Below, one piece after another: positions 5,998 to 36,583 of a DNA stretch of 42,304 nucleotides. The notes beneath the pieces are model-generated. The model had not been told where the DNA came from, did no database searches, and worked only from the letters and a program-made list of their open reading frames with translations. The stretch is from IMG/VR virus record IMGVR_UViG_2734482773_000007, one strand, 5' to 3'. Position 1 is the stretch's first letter, and every line of letters starts with the position of its first letter. Source of the DNA: a virus. Taxonomy: Duplodnaviria; Heunggongvirae; Uroviricota; Caudoviricetes. The translations under genes and the position numbers were made by a program.

Positions 5998-8061
5998 TCA
6001 ATCTTTTTTGTAGTGGTACGCCTCAAAACCGCCAGCGTTCAGTGGGATATCGGGCGCCCATTCGGGGTCAGTGGAGAGAAGCGCGGAAAGCGCTTTATCG
6101 TTGAAATCTTCTGTGTCAGGTGCTTCGGTGATCACCTCGTCGTGTACCGTCAGCACAATGCTGTAACCGGCATCTTCGATAAGCGGTATGTTTCCGGCCA
6201 GAACGTCGCGGGCGGCCGCCTGGGTGACGTTCTCCACCAGCTTTCCGCCGTAGGTTTTGAGTCGTTGCCATTTACGCGAATAAGAGTTAACACCCATGTA
6301 GGTGATATTCCCTTGTTCGATAACCGGAGACGGGTAGCATACAGCGCGTCCGGATGGTAGCTGTATGCGCAGCCACGCGCCATCGCGGCGGATTTTAAGA
6401 TAACCGCAATACAATGTTTTTTGCGGTGTGGCGATTGCAGTGCGGACGGTGCGCTCCAGTTCGTACCAGAAATCGCAGGTCGCCGGGTGCGCCCTGCGCC
6501 AGAGACGTTTAAGTGAGTCGCAGGCGATAAATACCCGTTCAGAAAGCCCGTAGGTTGACTTGCGTTTAACCGATTCGTCGTACCAGCTTTTCGCCTCGCG
6601 GATAACATCGCGGGGAATGTTTGGCAGTGCGGCGTTCGCCAGCTCGTCGAGATCGAGACCGTAAACCAGCGCAAAAGTGATGAAAGCCGATACACCACCA
6701 CCATAACCCAGACCGAGCTCCATGACTTTACCGATCTGACGCATGTGTTTATCAACATCATTTGGTGCAATATCGAAAGCTTTTGCATACGCCAGTTTAT
6801 ATAAGTCCGGACCCGTTCCGGCGTCGTACTCTCTGAATGCATTCAGTTTCCATTCTTCTCCCGCCAGCCATGCCAGCATACGGCCTTCAATGTTCGACAA
6901 GTCACTTACCACCAGCTTTTTGCCTGTTGGCGCGATAATGCAGCCACGTAACGCTGAACTGGTTAGTTCCATGATATTGTCAAACAGCAGGTCTGCACAT
7001 CCGGCTTTCAGTGCTTCGATGCCTTCGTCTATTTGTTCCTGTTTTAGTGAAGGGCGGGGAAGGTTCTGGGGCTGGAATAGCCGTCCGGCCCAACGACCGG
7101 TACGTGACGCCCCGCAGAACTGTAGCGTACCGCGTAAGCGCCCGTCGTGGCTTACGCCTTTCATCAGTGCCTTGTATTTACTGGTGCTGGTAGTACTGGC
7201 CTGCAGGCGGATAGCCAGCAGTTCTTTCACGGCAGATGGTAAATCGGGGTCGGCAATACGACGTTCCAGAGTACTGCGTTGCATGTCTGGTAGCTCCACA
7301 CCGTAGGATTCAACAATGTGCTTAATCAACGCGTCTCGTTGTGTGGCTGCCTGCACTTCGCCATCAGTCATTTCCTGTGTACGCTTTGCCAGGCGCTTTT
7401 GTTCCTGGTCTACCGCATCGATCGCAGCGCGTGCGAGTTCCACGTCCATGCAGACGCCCCGGTCGTTGATCTGCTGATCACGATGCCAGAGCGCCAGTTC
7501 TGTCCCCTGATAATTCCACTTCGGCAGACGTTTATAGACTTCGCGCATTGCCTCGATATCCAGTCCGGCGTAAGCAACAAAGCGCCGCCATTCTTCCGGG
7601 TGGGTTTTGCTGGTGGCCCGGCGCAGTTTGCTGTTTTTCGGGCGTGGCTTACAGAACAGCTGGATCAGCGCTTTACCTTCTTTGTCCTTCGCTTTGTCTT
7701 GCGGGACGCCTAGTACTTCGCAGAGTTCCCCCAGAGACCCCGGGAGACCGTGCGCCAGCGCCTGCACCATTGTGTCGCGCCAACGTTCGATTGGCGGTGC
7801 CAGGCGCGGCATTGCATAACGCAGGACGGTGCGGTCGAAGTGAGAGTTATGGAAATAAAGCAGGGTTTCAGGGTCTGCGATTGCTTCGTATAAGCCGTGT
7901 GGAATACCACCACCGGCAGTGATATCCCACACGTTTACGGGTCCGTCGTTGATAGCCCATGCGAACAGCATCACTTCAACGCCTTCGGCATACGCATGGG
8001 TACCGTTCGTAATAGGGATTTCGCAATAGGTTTCTAGGTCACCCCATAGTATATTGGACAT
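5998..8061 (-). CDS. family-A DNA polymerase (PolA-like, with N-terminal 3'-5' exonuclease-like region)
   Basis: 687 aa; overall resemblance to phage PolA proteins; sits within helicase/nuclease/primase replication module. Confidence 0.75.
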
Positions 8062-8117
8062 AAAATAACCTTGTGTGATATATGGTTATGTAGGTGTAAA
8101 TAAACAAGGAGACGGCG

Positions 8118-8387
8118 GTGTTTAGCTTTGGTATCGGAATACTTTCATTGATAGGTATTATTGCTTTCCCCATTCTTTATATTTTAGGGAGAATAGTTCG
8201 GGCTGGTGGCGCATGGCTCGAACGTGAAGAAGGTCCTAAGGATCGTGTTCTTCCCAAAATTATAATTTTTGCGCTTATTGGGTTCTTTCTTGGGTGTTTG
8301 GCTCAGCCTGTATGGGACAGCATTTCGGTATGTAGAGACTATGGCAATCCAATAGGGAAATGTCTTTTTAAATTCAATGAATTTTAA
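8118..8387 (+). CDS. small membrane protein on the opposite strand (moron-like)
   Basis: 89 aa, GTG start with AAGGAG RBS 6 nt upstream; two hydrophobic segments (FGIGILSLIGIIAFPILYIL and IIIFALIGFFLGCLA); AT-rich; orientation opposite to the surrounding operon. Confidence 0.5.
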   Translation: MFSFGIGILSLIGIIAFPILYILGRIVRAGGAWLEREEGPKDRVLPKIIIFALIGFFLGCLAQPVWDSISVCRDYGNPIGKCLFKFNEF

Positions 8388-8403
8388 TTTTTAGTATTGC
8401 GGT

Positions 8404-8444
8404 AGGCTGGTTTGGATAACTATTTTCTTAAGCCAGCCTTTGTT
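8404..8444 (+). terminator. hairpin (AGGCTGG ... CCAGCCT) plus T-rich tail after the membrane-protein gene
   Basis: 7-bp perfect stem with a long 22-nt loop then TTTGTT; weak but correctly placed. Confidence 0.3.
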
Positions 8445-8454
8445 ATAAGAAATA

Positions 8455-9093
8455 TTAAGCATCTACCCCTTCGTCAGAAGGGAGGCCGATCATTTCGTTG
8501 AGAGTTTCGCGTCGTATAGCTGGCGGAAGCGGAGCAGATGGTGCATCGGCTGGCAGAAGTTCTTTAGCTTCAGGCCACTCTTCCAGCAGGCGCTTAACTG
8601 TGCGCACTTTACTGAGTGCAGCGCTGACATTCTGTCGAATGTCTGACTCATCGCTCTGTATCTGCTCATAAAGTGCATCAAACCCGTAAAACTCTGTAAC
8701 TAGAGGGTCATTTGCCAGAAGGGTAAATTCCCCCGGCGCGATTTTGTGAATATGGTCTGGTGACCCTGATTCATATCCTCGATAGTTACCGTTGAAATAG
8801 ACGGTAACCCGAGAACCTGCCAGATTCAGACACATGTAACACTCTTTCCTGATAATATTATTGGCGGTTTTTAATGCTTCGGGGAATTTTGATACCAGTG
8901 TTTCTATTTTTTTTATAATTTTTAATATTTCAGCTTCTTTCTCTACGCCCCCGATAGCTGCAAGCCGAACACGTTCGGCCCATTCAACACGAGCAGCTCG
9001 TAGTGCTGATTTACGTTTGGGGATACCCGCTTTCTCAAGTGCGTTATTGATGATTTGAGTTTTAAGGTGATTAGTTAATACGGGCTGTGACAT
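8455..9093 (-). CDS. hypothetical phage protein
   Basis: ORF extends to 9123 but GAGGGA RBS precedes the Met at 9093 (MSQPVLTN...); no recognisable motifs. Confidence 0.5.
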   Translation of the reverse strand: MSQPVLTNHLKTQIINNALEKAGIPKRKSALRAARVEWAERVRLAAIGGVEKEAEILKIIKKIETLVSKFPEALKTANNIIRKECYMCLNLAGSRVTVYFNGNYRGYESGSPDHIHKIAPGEFTLLANDPLVTEFYGFDALYEQIQSDESDIRQNVSAALSKVRTVKRLLEEWPEAKELLPADAPSAPLPPAIRRETLNEMIGLPSDEGVDA

Positions 9094-30051: not shown

Positions 30052-30239
30052 CGTTTAACAGCCTGCCGGACGGGCTGTCCTACCTTCTCAATCCGGTTGA
30101 CGCCGGGTTAATTCCTTATACAGCACTTAAAGATGGCTCTGTCGATTTGTACGACATTGCTCTCTTGAATGACCATCTGGCGGTAAAAGCGGATAACCAG
30201 CGGCGCATTGAGAAATGGAGAGAGGATAATGAACGCTGA
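29997..30239 (+). other. putative -1 programmed frameshift site and extension (GT-like long form of chaperone)
   Basis: Slippery heptamers A_AAT_TTT / T_TTT_TTG at 29997-30006; the -1 frame stays open from there to the TGA at 30237-30239 and encodes a plausible 78-residue extension overlapping the tape-measure start. Confidence 0.5.
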
Positions 30240-32217
30240 AACTATTAAAGATTTCCTCGTCTCGCTTGGCTTTAGTGTGGATGATGCAGGAGCGAAAAAG
30301 TTCGGTTCTGTCCTCGCCGGTACAACTGCAAATGTCATCAAAATGGGGCTGGCCGTCGAAGGAACTGCACTGTCCGTGGTGGCCTTCACGGCTAAGATTG
30401 CCTCCGGCCTGGATAATCTTTACTGGGCGTCACAGCGCACTGGCGCGACAGTCCAGGGAATTCAGTCTATTGGCTATGCGGTTTCACAGGTTGGCGGCAG
30501 TGTGGACGCTGCGCGATCTTCTCTGGAAAGCCTCTCCCGGTTTATTCGTAACAATCCCGGGGCAGAGGGATTTCTGAATCGCCTGGGGGTACAGACACGG
30601 GATGCCAGCGGTAACATGCGTGACATGGCCGCTATTTTTACAAGTGTAGGCCAGAAGCTCAGCGGCATGCCGTATTACCGGGCTAACCAGTATGCGCAGA
30701 TGCTGGGCATTGACGAAAATACCCTTATGGCGATGCGCCGGGGTGTGGGTGGCTTCTCCGGGCAGTACAGCGCAATGGCGAAAGCTATCGGCTTCAATGC
30801 TGACGAGGCGGCCAGAAGCTCCAACAAATTTATGACCTCCCTGCGTGAGTTTGGCGCGATGGCAGGCATGGCCCGTGACAAAATCGGCTCTAATCTTGCG
30901 GGTGGGCTTGCGGGTTCGCTGGACACCCTGCGCCGCCATATCCTGGACAACTTCCCTCGTATCGAGCAGACCCTGACGAAAGCCATAAAAGGCATTCTGG
31001 CGCTCGGGGATATTATCGGGCGGCTGTTCTTCAGACTGATTGAGGGGACATCAGGCCTCATCACCTGGTGGCAATCGCTGGATAAGCAAACGCGGGAGTT
31101 GATCTCGCTGTTTGGCGCACTGACGATTGCGCTGCGCATTCTGAACAGTACGTTCTGGATGTCGCCGATTGGCCTCATTACCGCGCTGGCGGCGGGTATT
31201 GCCCTCCTGTGGGAGGACTATCAGACCTGGAAGGAAGGCGGCGACAGCCTGATTGACTGGGGCAAGTGGAAACCGGAGGTCGATGCCGCGCTGAAGATGG
31301 TTCGTGACCTTAAAACGACCGTTAACGACCTGGCGAAAGCGCTGGCGAAACTACTCAATATTGACCCCAAATCATGGTCCCTGAAGTGGGATTTCAGCAA
31401 CTTCATCGACCAGATGGGCGAATTCAGCAAAATGCTGAACATGATCGCCGACCTGCTCAACGCTATCAAAGATGGCCGCTGGGCTGATGCCGTCAGCATC
31501 GGCAAACAGATACTTAATCAGGGCAGCGAAAATCCGTCAGCGATGCCGATGGTTACAGACAGCGCTAACAGTACTGCCGACTGGATTAAAGAGCACTGGG
31601 GATTCGATCCCCGCAGTGTGGGCCGGACGGTACGCGGCTGGTTTGGTGATGATGAGCCGGAACAACATGCACAGGCTACGAAACGAGGAGAACGGAATAA
31701 CAATCCGGGAAACCTTAATTTTGCTGGTCAGGCGGGGGCTTCTCTTGAACGCCCGGGCGGGCGATTTGCCAGATTTGAAACTGCTTTTGATGGATTACGG
31801 GCTCTTGCTCGTCAGTTAATGCTGTACGCCGGACGGGGAATAAACAGTGTGGAGAAAATTATCTCTACCTGGGCACCTGCGTCTGATAATAACAACACAA
31901 CTGCGTATATCAGGGCTGTATCGCAACGACTGGGAGTGGATCCCCGGGCTGCCCTGAATATGAGCGATCCGCAAACCATGTCAGCATTGATGAGCAGCAT
32001 TATCCAGCATGAAAATGGAAGAAATATCTATTCCCGAGAGCTGATTAATAAGGCTGCCGTGGCAGGAATTAGTGGCAAAGTGACAGAGGTTAACCAGCAA
32101 AATACCTACCACATTTACGGTGGCGGAGATCCGCACGCTGTCGGTAATGAGGTTGCACGTCGGCAACAGTCTGCAAATGCTCAGGTCATGCGAAGTAATC
32201 AGGTGAGGGTGGGTTAG
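30229..32217 (+). CDS. tail tape measure protein
   Basis: About 660 aa, helical/Gly-Ala-rich with hydrophobic segment; start set at ATG 30229 after GGAGAGAGG RBS (the ATG at 30208 is part of that RBS). Confidence 0.75.
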   Translation: MNAETIKDFLVSLGFSVDDAGAKKFGSVLAGTTANVIKMGLAVEGTALSVVAFTAKIASGLDNLYWASQRTGATVQGIQSIGYAVSQVGGSVDAARSSLESLSRFIRNNPGAEGFLNRLGVQTRDASGNMRDMAAIFTSVGQKLSGMPYYRANQYAQMLGIDENTLMAMRRGVGGFSGQYSAMAKAIGFNADEAARSSNKFMTSLREFGAMAGMARDKIGSNLAGGLAGSLDTLRRHILDNFPRIEQTLTKAIKGILALGDIIGRLFFRLIEGTSGLITWWQSLDKQTRELISLFGALTIALRILNSTFWMSPIGLITALAAGIALLWEDYQTWKEGGDSLIDWGKWKPEVDAALKMVRDLKTTVNDLAKALAKLLNIDPKSWSLKWDFSNFIDQMGEFSKMLNMIADLLNAIKDGRWADAVSIGKQILNQGSENPSAMPMVTDSANSTADWIKEHWGFDPRSVGRTVRGWFGDDEPEQHAQATKRGERNNNPGNLNFAGQAGASLERPGGRFARFETAFDGLRALARQLMLYAGRGINSVEKIISTWAPASDNNNTTAYIRAVSQRLGVDPRAALNMSDPQTMSALMSSIIQHENGRNIYSRELINKAAVAGISGKVTEVNQQNTYHIYGGGDPHAVGNEVARRQQSANAQVMRSNQVRVG

Positions 32218-32804
32218 TGGATATTCTCTCTACACTTTTTCATCAGCAGAGCAGAAAAATAGGAATGATTGTTCCCAGTGTTGTTATTTCAGAGAAGCAT
32301 ACAGATATGCTTGAAATAACAGAGCATCCGGTAGAGGTCGGGGCTGCTGTCGCTGATCATGCCTATAAAAAACCGTCAGAAGTGGTGATGGAGGTTGGTT
32401 TCGCCGGTGGCGGCGCATTGCTGGATTTTGCCAGTAACCTGACGGCTACCAGCCTGCTCGGCCTGAGTCCTCAGCAGACGTATCAGGAGCTACTGGATCT
32501 GCAGGAAAGCCGTATCCCCTTCGATGTGGTAACCGGTAAACGGCTGTACAGCAACATGTTGATCCGGGCGCTGGAAGTGACGACGGACAAGACAACCGAA
32601 AACGTCCTGTCCGCCGTCCTCACCCTGAGGGAGGTCCTTATCTCCCGGACACAGCAGATCACCGTCGCTGATAAAACCAACATGAAGGAAGGGGCCAGCA
32701 CGTCGGCGGTACAGAACAGCGGCAACAAAACCACAAAGCCTCCAGATACTTCACTGCTGAAAAGCATCACGGGTAACGTGGTGTCATTACTGGGAGGCGG
32801 ATAA
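32217..32804 (+). CDS. tail/baseplate-associated protein
   Basis: 195-aa ORF, start overlaps tape-measure stop. Confidence 0.45.
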   Translation: MDILSTLFHQQSRKIGMIVPSVVISEKHTDMLEITEHPVEVGAAVADHAYKKPSEVVMEVGFAGGGALLDFASNLTATSLLGLSPQQTYQELLDLQESRIPFDVVTGKRLYSNMLIRALEVTTDKTTENVLSAVLTLREVLISRTQQITVADKTNMKEGASTSAVQNSGNKTTKPPDTSLLKSITGNVVSLLGGG

Positions 32805-33106
32805 TGACAATTCAGGAAATTCCGCTGACAGCGGACAACCAGCAGTTCAGCATCGTCCTGGGTGGTGTCACCTGGCGGATTAGCATCATATGGCGCGATC
32901 CTTACTGGATTATGGACCTGCAGAACGACAGAGGGGAGCCGGTAATCTCCGGTATACCTCTCGTCACTGGCGCTGACCTGCTGGCGCAGTACGCCTGTAT
33001 GGGACTTGGTTTTAAGCTGTTGGTGGTCTGCGATGACAACACACAGGATTATCCCACGAAAACTGACCTGGGCGGGCGCAGTCATTTACTGGTATCAACG
33101 GAGTAA
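32804..33106 (+). CDS. small tail protein
   Basis: 100-aa ORF, start overlaps upstream stop. Confidence 0.45.
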   Translation: MTIQEIPLTADNQQFSIVLGGVTWRISIIWRDPYWIMDLQNDRGEPVISGIPLVTGADLLAQYACMGLGFKLLVVCDDNTQDYPTKTDLGGRSHLLVSTE

Positions 33107-33108
33107 GC

Positions 33109-34176
33109 ATGTCACAGAACTGGATGAGACATTTCGAGCTGCAGCTTGTGGACGGGAACGGTCAGGGAATTGAGCTAAGTGATTTCAAAGTCACCTTTAC
33201 GATCGACTGGTTCAACATCAGCAGCGCGTCCCGGGTAGGGACTATCAAAATTTATAACCTCTCGGCAGATACTGTGAACCGAATTACCGGGCAGGAGTTT
33301 TCGAAAGTGCGTCTGATTGCGGGTTACGACGGTATCGCGCCGGAGGTGTCGGCAAGCGATGTCGGGACCGTGCGGGAGGTTGATGCGGCGGACGTGGGCC
33401 AGAGTGATGGCCGCAACTACGGACTGATTTTCAGCGGTGAAATTCGCTACTCGGTCACAGGAAAAGACAGCCCGGTTGATTCCTACGTCCTGATTCAGGC
33501 AGCCGATACAGATCTGGCTTTTGCCACCAGTATAACCTCACAGACGCTGGCTGCCGGTTACACGGTCGCTGATGTGAACCGTGCGCTGATGAAAGACTTC
33601 GAAGCCAAAGGTGCGACCGAAGGCCTGACGCCTGAAATGCCTGCTACTGTATTCCCCCGGGGGCGGGTACTCTTTGGCATGACGCGGCATCTTATGGATA
33701 ATGTAGCCGGGCAATGTGGCGCAACATGGCAATTCGTGGATGGTCAACGCCAGATGGTGGCGAATAATGAATATGTTCACGAAGCGATTGTGCTCAACAG
33801 CGCTACCGGGCTTATTGGCATGCCGCAGCAGACTATCGGTAACGGCGTAAACGTCCGCGCGCTTATTAATCCGAACATCCGGGTTAACGGGCTCATTCAA
33901 CTGGATCAGGCTTCAGTGTATCGTACCGCGTTGTCGAACAACGATATCGCGATGGCCGGTGGGCAGATCACCGACCAGAACACGGACGGAAATATTACGC
34001 TAAGCGGCACCACATCGCAGCCTGCCAGCATCGCAACGGATGGCGTTTATATTGTGCGTGGGATTATGTACACTGGCGACACAAGGGGGCAGGCGTGGTA
34101 CATGGATATGATGTGTGAAGCACGTGGCGCGGCTGATCTACTTTCGTCCTCAGCGCAGCAAAGGATTTATTCATGA
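33109..34176 (+). CDS. baseplate hub-like protein (Mu gp44 / late control D-like position)
   Basis: 355 aa; position after tape measure in Mu-like order. Confidence 0.45.
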   Translation: MSQNWMRHFELQLVDGNGQGIELSDFKVTFTIDWFNISSASRVGTIKIYNLSADTVNRITGQEFSKVRLIAGYDGIAPEVSASDVGTVREVDAADVGQSDGRNYGLIFSGEIRYSVTGKDSPVDSYVLIQAADTDLAFATSITSQTLAAGYTVADVNRALMKDFEAKGATEGLTPEMPATVFPRGRVLFGMTRHLMDNVAGQCGATWQFVDGQRQMVANNEYVHEAIVLNSATGLIGMPQQTIGNGVNVRALINPNIRVNGLIQLDQASVYRTALSNNDIAMAGGQITDQNTDGNITLSGTTSQPASIATDGVYIVRGIMYTGDTRGQAWYMDMMCEARGAADLLSSSAQQRIYS

Positions 34177-34520
34177 AGCGTATGAAGTTAGTTTTGACAA
34201 TTTCGTTATTATTTTCTTGTTCAGCAGCTTTTGCTGATTTGCAATGCGGCGGATATCTACTTCATGCAGCTGATAACGGTTGGACAAAAATCAACGGTGA
34301 GCAGGTAACATCACAGAAGATTACGTTTCTTGGTAAGAAAGATGACTGGGACAACGTTAAAACGAACATGGGCCTGATGCCTTCTCGCGATGGCAACAAT
34401 TACGGCTTTGAGTTTGTGAAGCGTAACGGAAAAGCTTTCCTGAACGTCCAGCTTCTGCAGAACAGCATGGATGCGCCTAAAATCATCGGATCATTCCCTT
34501 GTAAAAAGGCGTTACGCTAA
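34173..34520 (+). CDS. small secreted protein (cleavable signal peptide), moron-like
   Basis: 115 aa; N-terminus MKRMKLVLTISLLFSCSAAFA then DLQ fits Sec signal with AFA cleavage site; AT-rich; inserted between baseplate hub and spike genes. Confidence 0.55.
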   Translation: MKRMKLVLTISLLFSCSAAFADLQCGGYLLHAADNGWTKINGEQVTSQKITFLGKKDDWDNVKTNMGLMPSRDGNNYGFEFVKRNGKAFLNVQLLQNSMDAPKIIGSFPCKKALR

Positions 34521-34547
34521 AGTTTGATGTCAATCTTCCGAGATGAG

Positions 34548-34582
34548 CGCTTTAAGGTTGACGAGATATTGTTCAAAGTTCA
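34548..34582 (+). promoter_or_regulatory. candidate promoter for the 34616..35771 cassette (TTGACG-N17-CACAAT)
   Basis: Read from sequence; weak -10. Confidence 0.25.
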
Positions 34583-34615
34583 CAATCACAATCCCTTTAG
34601 TAAGAGAAATAATCC

Positions 34616-35389
34616 ATGGCGGCAGGCATCCCATTAGAAAAAGCGCAAAAATATATTGAACAATTCAATGCGCTTCTATTGGATAGGGAAAGTTTAGATC
34701 CCTTCACTGAAAAGAAAATTCGAGAGGAACTTTCTGTCTCTCCAACGCCTGCTACCAACATTGCACTATCTTATCTGGATGCAATAACCGGAAAGATTGA
34801 AAGCGCGTTACGTTATCTCAGGATAAGCCTAGAAGTAAACGATGTAACGTTGGCAATGCACTATCATCACATTTTAATTAATACATTTAGCTATAATGAA
34901 CTCAAGGATGTCTATGTCCCGCTGGCAAAGAAGTATCGGACAAAACTCTTTAGTCACAACGCATACAGTTGGGCGTACCGTTGCGGCGAGCGTGAACAGT
35001 TAAAATTTTATATGGAAGAGCACATTAAGCTTCTTTCTGAATCAGAAGGCAGGAGTAATGCTATGAAGCACAAAGAAGAACTCCTTGCAGAAATGGATAA
35101 TTTCTATAGCGCCACACAGTGCTCGAAGGAACAGTTCCAGACCTTAGCATCCATAATCTGGGGCTTGCTAAGTGAATACAAGGCTACGACAGGTTTCGTT
35201 CAGCTTAGTGGAAGCGGTTGCTATGTTGTTGATATTAAAAATCTTGAGCCTAAAACTATTGCCAAAATGAACTTCGACTTGGCTGATAGAGTCTGCGCTG
35301 AATCTAAACTGGATGATTGTTCCCTGTTAGCTAGATTTACCTCTCCGCGTCAGTTGCATACGGGGGTGAGCTACCATGTCGGTAACTAG
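34616..35389 (+). CDS. hypothetical helical protein, first gene of AT-rich two-gene cassette
   Basis: 257 aa, AT-rich codons, no signal peptide, no catalytic motif recognised; overlaps next gene by 14 bp. Confidence 0.55.
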   Translation: MAAGIPLEKAQKYIEQFNALLLDRESLDPFTEKKIREELSVSPTPATNIALSYLDAITGKIESALRYLRISLEVNDVTLAMHYHHILINTFSYNELKDVYVPLAKKYRTKLFSHNAYSWAYRCGEREQLKFYMEEHIKLLSESEGRSNAMKHKEELLAEMDNFYSATQCSKEQFQTLASIIWGLLSEYKATTGFVQLSGSGCYVVDIKNLEPKTIAKMNFDLADRVCAESKLDDCSLLARFTSPRQLHTGVSYHVGN

Positions 35390-35771
35390 CAATCAGATTC
35401 TCGATACCGCTCGATTATGTCTGTCTGAAAATATTGAGAGTGGATTTCGAAGCGCTATCTCAAGGGCGTATTACAGTATGTTACATGAGTCTATTAGCTC
35501 ACTTACTGCCATACCGCATTTTACCCATGAGCATCACAAAAATACTGTGGGTTATATGTCAACGCCCTCAGAGTGCAAATCAGAGCCATACCCGACAAAT
35601 ACACTGAAATCCCTAGCTTTCGTACTTCGCCAGTGGCGGGATGCTAGAAATGAAGCTGACTATGATCTGACGAATGTGACTGTTTCGAAAGAGATGGGAC
35701 AGGATGCAATCGAGGCTGCTGAACTCTATTTTGAGCGCTGGGAACAGCTAAAGTCTGCTAGAGTTTCATGA
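35376..35771 (+). CDS. small helical protein with HEPN-like features, second gene of cassette
   Basis: 131 aa; SRAYYSMLHES contains an R-x6-H spacing and AYY..LH helix start reminiscent of HEPN domains; tentative. Confidence 0.5.
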   Translation: MSVTSNQILDTARLCLSENIESGFRSAISRAYYSMLHESISSLTAIPHFTHEHHKNTVGYMSTPSECKSEPYPTNTLKSLAFVLRQWRDARNEADYDLTNVTVSKEMGQDAIEAAELYFERWEQLKSARVS

Positions 35772-35788
35772 ATAAAATTAACGTTATC

Positions 35789-35813
35789 AAACCCGCTTCG
35801 GCGGGTTTTTTGC
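35789..35813 (+). terminator. rho-independent terminator (AAACCCGC-TTCG-GCGGGTTT + T-tract)
   Basis: Perfect 8-bp stem, UUCG tetraloop, U-run; 18 nt after cassette stop. Confidence 0.8.
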
Positions 35814-35830
35814 TTTCTGGAGCCTACTAA

Positions 35831-36583
35831 ATGGCAGTATCTGACCAGACCCGCAGCGGCGACCTTGCCGAAACATTCAAATCTGAACGGGAAACAACAA
35901 AGAACCAGATCCGTGTCGCCTTGCCTGGCATTATTCAGTCATTCGATCCTGATGCGGTGACGGCAGTTGTGCAGCCTGCTATCCGTTCGGTTGAAAAGGA
36001 TAATGACGGCAACCGCATTACCAAAAATTACCCATTGCTGGTGGATGTGCCAGTGGTATTCCCGCGCGGCGGAGGATGTACGCTAACATTCCCAGTTAAA
36101 GCCGGTGATGAATGTTTGGTGATTTTTGCCGATCGTTGTATTGATTTCTGGTGGCAGAGTGGCGGGATACAGGAGTCGGTCGATGACAGAATGCATGATT
36201 TATCGGATGCGTTTTGTATTGTCGGTCCCCAGTCGCAGGCAAGGAAGATTAGCGGTATTAATACCAGTGCCACACAGTTGCGTAGTGATGACGGCAGCAC
36301 CTATTTTGAGCTTAATCCTGATACCAGGAAAATTAAAATTGTCGCTCCAGGTGGTCTTGATGTGGTTGTCCCTCTGGCTGATTTTTCTGAGAAAGTAACC
36401 ATTCATGGCCTGTTAACCTGGATGGGTGGCATGGTGGGGTCTGTTGTTTCTGGTGTGGCTTCAAAAATCACTGGTGCTGTTGAGTTCTTGGGGAGCGTTA
36501 AGGCTAACGGCAAGCCAATCGATGATACGCACACTCATGGCGGTGTTCAGCGCGGTGGAAGCAATACCGATGGGGTAAACTGA
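35831..36583 (+). CDS. baseplate spike / assembly protein V-like
   Basis: 250 aa; gpV/Mu gp45-like position; Gly-rich C-terminus. Confidence 0.6.
   Translation: MAVSDQTRSGDLAETFKSERETTKNQIRVALPGIIQSFDPDAVTAVVQPAIRSVEKDNDGNRITKNYPLLVDVPVVFPRGGGCTLTFPVKAGDECLVIFADRCIDFWWQSGGIQESVDDRMHDLSDAFCIVGPQSQARKISGINTSATQLRSDDGSTYFELNPDTRKIKIVAPGGLDVVVPLADFSEKVTIHGLLTWMGGMVGSVVSGVASKITGAVEFLGSVKANGKPIDDTHTHGGVQRGGSNTDGVN

Follow-up and report, generated by a model that had tools for sequence, protein, structure and literature searches.

The window analysed here, the whole 42,304-nt stretch of a virus of the Caudoviricetes (IMG/VR record IMGVR_UViG_2734482773_000007), carries a small gene in the junction between its baseplate hub gene and its spike gene, the product of the latter being named membrane-puncturing spike protein by PGAP (Table 1). 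The small open reading frame extends from ATG to stop over positions 34173-34520 of the plus strand and encodes 115 amino acids. It is a real, conserved gene, as its protein matched phrog_3443 (E 1.1e-53, residues 1-112 aligned to a profile of 115 positions) and had 404 homologs in Enterobacterales, and the family is a narrow one (64 cluster representatives among 1.84 billion proteins). The unannotated phrog_3443, to which distant paralogs and array copies also belonged, was its sole PHROG match, rendering membership uninformative with respect to function. Scans of the protein returned no Pfam, NCBIfam or PADLOC family, and no study of the gene was found in the literature.

Table 1. Features of the hub-spike junction in the window, with the evidence for each.
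Feature	Coordinates	Strand	Evidence or description
Baseplate hub gene (left flank)	33109..34176	+	phrog_196 baseplate hub, E 1e-88; PF22759 E217_GP41
Shine-Dalgarno AAGGA and ATGA overlap	34161..34176	+	Read from sequence
Small gene (predicted exported protein)	34173..34520, stop codon included	+	115 aa including signal peptide; ORF, phrog_3443 (E 1e-53), homologs, AF2 model
Predicted signal peptide, residues 1-21 (MKRMKLVLTISLLFSCSAAFA)	34173..34235	+	n-h-c layout; predicted SPase I cut after AFA
Hypervariable segment	34180..34370	+	Signal peptide and mature residues to about 65; strands b1-b5, loops L2 and L4
Conserved C-terminal half	34371..34517	+	Alignment; entropy 0.3-0.5 bits
Two-gene cargo cassette	34616..35771	+	257 aa (phrog_17809) and 131 aa (phrog_5176)
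Rho-independent terminator	35789..35815	+	AAACCCGC-TTCG-GCGGGTTT plus T-run; 22 nt ahead of the spike ATG
Membrane-puncturing spike gene (right flank)	35831..36583	+	PF18352 spike N-terminal domain, E 4e-44; GpV Apex motif

The start of the small gene is tied closely to the end of the hub gene. Specifically, a Shine-Dalgarno sequence (AAGGA, 34161-34165) lies upstream of its ATG, which overlaps the hub stop codon as ATGA (34173-34176), and in nearly all loci the gene began 0-15 nt past the end of the hub match. Translational coupling to the hub gene within the late operon is strongly supported at the sequence level, so that the product would be made at least together with the late tail operon. 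The gene had been described as AT-rich in the initial annotation, and this was confirmed, with a GC content of 0.428 in the window as compared to 0.540 for the hub and 0.497 for the spike. Across 42 loci the means were 0.45 for the small gene, 0.52 for the hub and 0.54 for the spike, and the small gene fell below the hub in 37 of them. Relatives of the locus were present in Klebsiella, Salmonella, Yersinia, Photorhabdus, Serratia and Pantoea.

That the protein carries a Sec-type signal peptide, as initially proposed, was borne out by its own sequence features and by the layout shared among its homologs. The charged n-region MKRMK (+3) is followed by the hydrophobic core LVLTISLLFSCSAAF (best 10-residue hydropathy window, 2.44) and then by A-F-A with D as the next residue, in keeping with the n-region, h-region and AxA end of a Sec/SPase I substrate. 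The same n-h-c layout recurred in nearly all of 121 homologs inspected, with a small-x-small end, mostly AxA, placed two or three residues ahead of an invariant cysteine. The signal sequence was the most variable segment of the protein (2.1 bits in the entropy profile), such that the architecture is kept among homologs while the sequence varies freely. Export by the Sec pathway, predicted to yield a mature form of about 94 residues, is thus strongly supported. In the window protein, LLFS-C16 also fits a PROSITE-like lipobox. However, relatives that were 80-89% identical lacked one, the motif [LVI][ASTVI][GAS]C was not conserved, and a lipobox was found in just 6 of the 121 homologs, for which reason lipid attachment was rejected as a trait of the family. 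Most members are predicted to be soluble periplasmic proteins rather than lipoproteins, while in two relatives (P0255 and P0276), encoded in the same slot, the domain forms the C-terminus of long, lipobox-bearing lipoproteins.

For the mature protein, a small, eight-stranded up-and-down beta-barrel is predicted (AF2 model, pLDDT 84). Two cysteines, C25 and C110, were present in 120 of 120 sequences at the two ends of the mature chain, and a disulfide between them probably staples the first strand to the last. The C-terminal half contains the L5 loop MPxRDGNNYGF, the segment KRNGKAFLNV, the L7 loop QNSMDAPK and the invariant C110, and the conserved loops NGExVTSQK, MPxRDGNNYGF and QNSMDAPK lie at one end of the predicted barrel. 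A sequence-profile search of the PDB with the protein gave noise only, and Foldseek comparison of the model with PDB and BFVD produced no match at E < 0.01. The best structural matches were ligand-binding barrels, for example avidins and 5hal.

This plan resembles that of the MliC/PliC inhibitors (PF09864), which have a signal peptide or lipobox, an eight-stranded barrel of about 90 residues and a cysteine near each end, and which, like the present family, come in soluble and lipoprotein versions. Under this reading the protein would be a periplasmic inhibitor of animal lysozyme, a product of lysogenic conversion aiding survival of the lysogen in its host. The lead came from the UniRef name of one homolog (P0118, "C-type lysozyme inhibitor domain-containing protein") and from an S-x-x-G-x-x-Y-like loop visible by eye. 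Membership in MliC/PliC was rejected on a Pfam scan, in which MliC matched 0 of 28 members at E values up to 10, and on an hhalign comparison of the family with an MliC/PliC alignment, which returned a probability of 0.6%. Moreover, the PDB profile search yielded no MliC or PliC chain, the loop is lost in distant members, and a conserved host-enzyme target would not predict the hypervariability and gene arrays described below. We consider this type of inhibition improbable.

With respect to its distribution, the small gene directly followed the hub in about 130 related loci, and was beside the hub in 42 of 42 genome loci and in 80 viral loci. It was fixed within the clade and missing from less closely related phages: Pam3, BP63, Bordetella IFTN9 and Acinetobacter Ab105-1phi, all of the same baseplate architecture, go directly from hub to spike, and the Hafnia phage yong1, whose hub is 78% identical, has in the slot an unrelated 136-aa protein that lacks a signal peptide. 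The gene was therefore missing in five phages with homologous hubs, and does not have the ubiquity of a baseplate component. Further, the baseplate proteins annotated for Pam3, which span tube initiator to wedges, include no counterpart of the small protein; no virion proteomics was found in the literature for the relatives, the SEN34 paper containing none. Because phages with the same baseplate pass from hub to spike, and yong1 has an unrelated gene there, these comparisons strongly support the small protein as a putative accessory product and not part of the virion, in line with the early view that it has no obvious role in tail assembly. That it is a clade-specific, moron-like accessory gene of SEN34/Brunovirus-like temperate myophages of Enterobacterales is likewise strongly supported.

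A factor for tail or baseplate assembly, or a minor virion or ejection protein with a hydrophobic N-terminus serving as a membrane anchor and not as a cleaved signal, would fit the fixed position between hub and spike and the coupling to the hub. The divergence of the small gene also tracked that of the adjacent hub C-terminal half best (rho 0.72), which may be simple linkage. The absence from same-baseplate phages, including Pam3, and from yong1 speaks against such a factor, as do the decoupling of alleles from the structural genes (below), the conserved AxA site and cysteine pair, which are typical of periplasmic proteins, and the occurrence of lipoprotein fusions and multi-copy arrays. A structural or assembly role is accordingly very improbable.

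Downstream of the small gene, the terminator was the sole terminator-like site within positions 32800-36200, and an equivalent hairpin, with compensatory stem changes, was present in every locus that has a gap ahead of the spike gene. It stood directly 3' of the small gene in five loci. Four of these (L037, L083, L099 and L109) have a cargo-free arrangement of gene plus terminator, and in the fifth (L138) gene and terminator lie between plug and hub instead. In the window, the cassette sits between the small gene and the terminator and was regarded as later cargo; its proteins had no Pfam, NCBIfam or PADLOC match. The initial annotation had correctly placed the small gene directly upstream of this cassette, and had suggested that the three genes may form one accessory island. 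They are indeed adjacent, all have a GC content of 0.42-0.44 and no terminator separates them. However, the cassette was present in 0 of the 42 genome loci, while the small gene was present in all 42. The cassette also paired with different small-gene alleles that were only 67-69% identical, and alleles 92-99% identical carried other cargo. Homology to relatives stopped exactly at the small-gene stop codon and picked up again at the terminator, and other E. coli copies held DUF4282, a YafO toxin pair, DUF2335 and other cargos in this interval. The island is thereby largely refuted by comparative data. The cassette is only one of many alternative cargos, assorting independently of the small-gene allele, and the two share only an insertion hot spot with a common terminator.

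The small gene itself has the hallmarks of a moron in that it sits between genes adjacent in related phages, deviates in base composition and has a downstream terminator. A promoter for expression in the lysogen was not found, promoter-like sites being at chance frequency (5 found, 5.2 expected), and the hub 3' end had no excess conservation at synonymous sites that would signal an embedded promoter.

Variation within the gene was concentrated at its 5' end, where about 200 nt had 35-68% nucleotide identity between flanks of 83-100%, a block with which the entropy profile agreed. In one comparison (L095), identity was 100% downstream of the hypervariable block, 92-98% upstream and 44-68% inside it. 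While cluster labels of the hub, Dit, spike N-terminus and J agreed mutually (AMI 0.83-0.92, with 0.92 for hub versus spike N-terminus), those of the N-terminal half of the small protein agreed with none of them (AMI 0.03-0.42; for the small gene, 0.42 with the hub and 0.38 with the spike N-terminus). Small-gene alleles are thus decoupled from structural genes that are tightly co-inherited. A search for co-varying partners among the tape-measure C-terminus, spike, hub and fibre exposed only correlation of the adjacency type, with weak cluster agreement, so that no cognate target in the same phage is indicated by tape measure, spike or hub. The tape-measure C-termini of all loci fell in one homologous class, leaving no SLT versus non-SLT split to correlate.

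In two of the 42 genome loci and in none of the 80 viral loci, the gene occurred as an array. One of these (L037) has four diversified paralogs in tandem, with a copy of the hub 3' end ahead of every one, and the other (L026) has seven to eight diversified paralogs in tandem, with shorter hub 3'-end remnants between several of them.

The variable half and the arrays bear on whether the protein serves the host cell in a way unrelated to phages, for example as a lipocalin- or avidin-like ligand binder, a stress or serum-resistance factor, or a virulence factor. The ligand-binding barrels among the best structural matches, together with the moron-like composition and terminator, would be consistent with such conversion, as would a stand-alone chromosomal copy in Erwinia psidii. 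The latter does not represent a broad bacterial family, as the stand-alone homolog has only 3 clusters. The family is narrow and locked almost exclusively into one tail-gene junction, and its hypervariable half and the arrays suggest that its partner is a polymorphic macromolecule, making a host-directed function quite unlikely.

We tentatively favor a function of the small protein as an envelope-level exclusion or immunity-like factor, to which we assign a probability of roughly 0.4; a role as exclusion factor or periplasmic inhibitor is plausible, though unproven. Homology to superinfection-exclusion proteins (Spackle, Sim, gp15, Ltp, Cor, Llp) was absent in Pfam, NCBIfam, PADLOC and PDB searches, so that this reading draws on context only. 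The protein would act in the periplasm, intercepting a step of infection by competing contractile-tailed phages; candidates are penetration by the tail tip, injection of DNA and the muralytic domain at the C-terminus of the tape measure. In this tail family the tape measure ends in an SLT-like muralytic domain, a possible target close at hand. The conserved loops at the barrel end would recognise a part of the target that is itself conserved, specificity would be set by the hypervariable N-terminal half, and an arms race could lie behind the diversification, the swapping of alleles and the occasional tandem arrays. Several observations count against exclusion, namely that allele types do not co-vary with tape measure, spike or hub, that IFTN9 and yong1 have SLT-type tape measures and no small gene, that arrays are rare, and that, with no lysogenic promoter detected, late-only expression would be odd for an exclusion factor.

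The coupling to the late operon would also fit a protein that masks a receptor or other surface component, binding a host envelope receptor or co-receptor and blocking adsorption of competitors, as do T5 Llp and phi80/N15 Cor. Being made late, it would also keep progeny virions from firing on the debris of lysed cells. Cor and Llp, both encoded in tail modules, are precedents for receptor masking, some relatives of the small protein are lipoproteins, and the hypervariable half could follow polymorphic surface proteins of the host. However, the genes to which it is linked are hub and spike, not those for the fibre or for receptor binding, an association with the fibre C-terminus was absent (AMI 0.03, in a test of low power given too many fibre clusters), and the family is mostly soluble and periplasmic with few lipoproteins. 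We regard masking as unlikely.

Several known systems share aspects of what is proposed for exclusion by the small protein. T4 Spackle (gp61.3) is likewise a small periplasmic phage protein with a signal peptide. The Spackle fold is all-helical, and the two proteins have no similarity in sequence or fold, with nothing related emerging from PDB searches. Spackle is also an early gene, whereas the present gene is hypervariable and in the late tail operon. Spackle inhibits the tail lysozyme in the periplasm, which confers superinfection exclusion, and its target is the muralytic activity at the tail tip of incoming contractile phages (PMC7677548). The present family likewise has a muralytic, SLT-like domain, on its tape measure.

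The small gene also resembles HK97 gp15, lambda lom and phi80/N15 cor in being an extra gene that separates tail genes lying side by side in relatives. As in these lambdoid morons, it has a deviant composition, a downstream terminator and a product predicted to be targeted to the envelope. HK97 gp15 and Cor exclude phages. Unlike lambdoid morons, the small gene had no detectable promoter and was fixed across the whole clade, not sporadic. The proteins differ as well, with gp15 in the inner membrane, Lom an OmpX-like outer-membrane barrel and Cor a lipoprotein, while the small protein is predicted to be a soluble beta-barrel. Finally, the likeness of its arrays to the immunity genes and orphan arrays of T6SS, CDI and Rhs systems is organisational only. 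In contrast to these systems, no toxin partner came to light, the arrays carry a hub fragment that is conserved and not polymorphic, and no tail gene co-varies with the alleles.

A bolder form of the exclusion reading, which we consider doubtful, is that temperate contractile phages possess a polymorphic periplasmic "tail-tip immunity" system. The protein would then combine a conserved barrel face, docking onto the tail-tip or muralytic complex of the incoming phage, with a swappable N-terminal half that sets which competitors are blocked, and recombination at the hub 3' end would capture new specificities, giving orphan-like arrays of 4-8 copies comparable to the immunity arrays of T6SS, CDI and Rhs.

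Whatever its function, the small gene marks the hub/spike junction as a well-defined moron hot spot, in which a fixed gene for a predicted exported protein is followed by variable cargo and then by a conserved terminator, and which offers a place to look for defence and toxin cassettes. Prophages with this locus are common, matching in 336 of 5,426 complete E. coli genomes and occurring in other genera. If the exclusion reading is true, they would encode envelope-level phage-exclusion proteins of a new, uncharacterised family with a built-in specificity module, which would bear on competition between prophages, on host-range prediction and on phage therapy against lysogens.

The 115-aa ORF behind the baseplate hub gene, which the initial annotation had singled out as an AT-rich gene inside the tail module directly before a two-gene cassette, is a real gene. 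Its product matched phrog_3443 (E 1e-53) and had 404 homologs in Enterobacterales, in a family that was narrow (64 cluster representatives among the 1.84 billion of the protein search). Its ATG shares bases (ATGA) with the stop of the 355-aa gene before it, an overlap that assigns it to the late operon. The gene order was confirmed; these genes belong to the tail tip of a contractile-tail module. GC content was 0.428 (hub gene 0.540), and in 37 of 42 related loci the small gene was lower in GC than the hub. All genes of the run that begins with the Q antiterminator (16130) and includes lysis, head, and tail are on the plus strand, and this run is a lambdoid late operon.

Features of the tail-tip region surrounding the small gene
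Feature	Position	Strand	Setting or basis
Tape measure	30208-32217	+	tail-tip module
Dit-like protein		+	tail-tip module; after tape measure, before plug
Pam3-gp18-like plug		+	tail-tip module; between Dit-like gene and hub
E217-gp41-like hub	33109-34176	+	directly upstream of small ORF
Shine-Dalgarno AAGGA of small gene	34161-34165	+	sequence reading
Small gene, 115 aa	34173-34520	+	ATG-to-stop ORF
Weak promoter-like site	34558-34586		upstream of cassette
257-aa gene (phrog_17809) and 131-aa gene (phrog_5176), overlapping	34616-35771	+	tail-tip module, between small ORF and spike; PHROG matches
Rho-independent terminator	35789-35808 (to 35815 in wider span)	+	22 nt before spike ATG; homology resumes there
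Spike with GpV apex motif	35831-36583	+	tail-tip module
Sheath initiator, baseplate J, DUF2612 wedge, fibre, fibre chaperone		+	tail module; downstream of spike

An E. coli chromosome carries the same 2 kb at 100% identity, and matches to the locus were found in 336 of 5,426 complete E. coli genomes. The identical copy (locus L049; E. coli PK8276, NZ_CP080146.1 2815200-2825200) belongs to a deleted prophage remnant at tRNA-Thr/proA, in which integrase and early genes adjoin the baseplate plug gene and PGAP left the 131-aa gene uncalled.

The comparison took in 42 loci of species-representative genomes plus 80 viral contigs of IMG/VR, with hubs from 100% down to 48% identical to that of the window. 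Cargo was absent from loci L038-L043, L097, and L114, in which the spike ATG lies 11-14 nt past the small-gene stop; a terminator alone followed the small gene in L037, L083, L099, and L109, and other loci carried 0.3-4 kb of unrelated cargo on its 3′ side. The E. coli junction between hub and spike is a hot spot for cargo and holds DUF4282, a hypothetical protein with a YafO-family toxin, DUF2335, an HMG-box protein, or others according to strain (including L050, L051, and genome matches H36-H49). Relatives share nucleotide homology through the small gene as far as its stop (about 34507), and again from about 35790. A hairpin equivalent to the terminator there, with compensatory stem changes, was found in every locus having a gap before the spike gene; across genera it stayed 20-25 nt ahead of the spike start irrespective of cargo (L001-L051), and the only loci without it were those in which small gene and spike gene adjoin. 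In L138, with a hub 44% identical, the small gene and its own terminator sit between plug and hub (L138:5001-5330), as would be expected of a mobile "gene plus terminator" moron. There is strong support for the small gene as a moron-like unit with a fixed place at the junction of hub and spike in SEN34-like prophages. A stand-alone chromosomal homolog in Erwinia psidii (protein P0289, L139:5001-5339), between tsx/yoaK-like genes and a LysR regulator, was outside any visible prophage; this type comprised only three protein clusters.

A terminator is understandable within a late operon of essential genes only on two conditions: antitermination of late transcription, for which the window has the Q gene, and a need to stop other transcription. 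It hints at a non-late promoter upstream. The search found no such promoter: promoter-like sites were at chance level, and synonymous sites at the hub 3′ end, a test for an embedded promoter, were not unusually conserved.

The independence of the small gene from the cassette is likewise strongly supported. The initial annotation had allowed that the three genes might form one accessory island, yet the 257- and 131-aa pair was found in none of the 42 genome loci, and it co-occurred with small-gene alleles just 67-69% identical, whereas alleles 92-99% identical carried other cargo. The small gene and cassette are hence adjacent occupants of one hot spot, and it is highly improbable that the three genes form a functional island. 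The cassette itself has a GC content of 0.42-0.44 and the conserved terminator downstream, and its proteins had no match in Pfam, NCBIfam, or PADLOC. Copies 44-55% identical (257-aa gene 44-45%, 131-aa gene 55%) occupied the same slot in Yersinia-type tails (L086, L088, L090), and L046 carried a 263-aa gene with a 127-aa phrog_5176 gene. The cassette would appear to be of a two-gene type that recurs, its small partner being conserved, and may encode a toxin-antitoxin or defence pair.

The canonical Sec signal peptide of the initial annotation held up at the level of prediction: the N-terminus reads MKRMK, then LVLTISLLFSCSAAF, then AFA|D, and its n-h-c layout was common to 121 homologs, with a small-x-small motif 2 or 3 residues before an invariant cysteine. 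This segment was the most variable stretch of the protein, as expected of a signal peptide. A lipobox pattern (LLFS-C16) also fits the window protein; however, only 6 of the 121 homologs had a lipobox and relatives 80-89% identical lacked it, so that SPase I export is the predicted family trait and lipoprotein status as such a trait was ruled out. In Salmonella phage SEN34, RefSeq places the start of SEN34_20 (L002:3501-3842) at an internal Met, giving 77 aa that lack the signal peptide and the initial strands; the match by tblastn begins 108 nt further upstream, right behind the hub gene.

An AlphaFold2 model (input alignment of 28 sequences; pLDDT 84) placed eight strands after the signal helix. 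C25 and C110, on the first and last strands, were invariant in 120/120 sequences, and a disulfide between them would close the barrel. An exported accessory protein with a predicted beta-barrel is strongly supported. Conservation was strongly asymmetric along the chain in the entropy profile: loops L3 (NGExVTSQK), L5 (MPxRDGNNYGF), and L7 (QNSMDAPK) and the strands around them were conserved, and variation fell in b2-L2-b3 and L4-b5. Judged by up-and-down topology, the three loops would share one barrel end. Two longer homologs, P0255 (292 aa) and P0276 (265 aa), are lipobox lipoproteins with the domain at the C-terminus behind an N-terminal domain of ~190 aa of unknown type; the P0255 gene lies in the same slot after the hub (L046-L048; L046:6001-6879).

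The overall plan of the small protein resembles that of MliC, and UniRef titles one homolog "C-type lysozyme inhibitor domain-containing protein", which would make it a lysozyme inhibitor. Against this, no family member matched PF09864 even at E up to 10, a PDB search with the family profile recovered neither MliC nor PliC chains, and hhalign gave a probability of 0.6% against an MliC/PliC alignment built here. Membership in MliC/PliC was rejected on all three, a lysozyme inhibitor is improbable, and an MliC/PliC-like mode of action is possible but unsupported.

Hypervariability of the N-terminal half, with occasional array expansion, is also strongly supported. Compared with ten loci whose hub genes were 80-97% identical in nucleotides, identity fell to 35-53% at 34189-34278, then rose to 73-96% over the gene's 3′ half. 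L095 matched the window at 100% over a stretch starting near 34500 and including the entire cassette, and at 92-98% in the hub, but at only 44-68% in about 34150-34350. The allelic segment has sharp boundaries and takes in the signal peptide and some 40 residues at the start of the mature protein. Tandem arrays occurred in two genomes. Pseudescherichia vulneris (L037, 629-2849) had four paralogs that had diversified, with a copy of the hub 3′ end in front of each, while the complete chromosome of Serratia aquatilis (L026, 4458-9346) had seven intact and one broken paralog over 5 kb. In the Serratia array, shorter hub 3′-end remnants separate several paralogs, and an IS256-like transposase (7325-8533, minus strand) has inserted and breaks the row. 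All of these paralogs kept the signal peptide and cysteine pair and matched phrog_3443.

Presence and absence among relatives, a check proposed in the initial annotation, came out as follows: the gene was fixed directly behind the hub across the 42 genome loci and 80 contigs, noted exceptions apart, and missing in five phages. In the more distant Bordetella IFTN9, Acinetobacter Ab105-1phi, BP63 (lytic, Salmonella), and Pam3, with the same gene order and homologous hubs, the spike gene is immediately 3′ of the hub, and the slot of Hafnia phage yong1 (hub 78% identical) holds an unrelated 136-aa protein lacking a signal peptide, with no family member found there. These arrangements bear out the view that the protein has no obvious role in tail assembly. 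Moreover, cluster labels of the hub, Dit, spike N-terminus, and J agreed with each other at AMI 0.83-0.92, whereas those of the small-protein N-terminal half agreed only poorly with all four, at 0.03-0.42, despite its place between hub and spike. By these comparisons the small protein is probably not a tail part, and a structural or assembly role is very unlikely.

We infer, at a probability of roughly 40%, that the small protein acts in the envelope against competing phages, most plausibly by preventing injection or penetration of the tail tip, as a counterpart of T4 Spackle, which is described as an inhibitor of the tail lysozyme in the periplasm (PMC7677548). A candidate target would be the SLT-like muralytic domain that ends tape measures of this tail family. 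The C-terminus of the window tape measure (residues about 480-657) matched endolysin and "tail injection transglycosylase" PHROGs and was homologous to tape-measure C-termini of relatives that match Pfam SLT (L046; yong1 as annotated), suggesting a muralytic tail-tip activity. Against exclusion, no homology to any known exclusion factor and no lysogenic promoter were found, small-gene alleles did not co-vary with tape measure, spike, or hub, and the same tape-measure domain occurred in related phages without the small gene. Receptor masking or protection of progeny is unlikely, and another host-directed conversion function slightly more so.

The initial proposal of a lysogenic-conversion factor is reasonable but unproven. 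The protein is uncharacterised, although a moron-encoded envelope protein in a tail operon is of a known kind, and its unusual diversification pattern makes the small gene a promising candidate for a new exclusion family, and one open to direct test.
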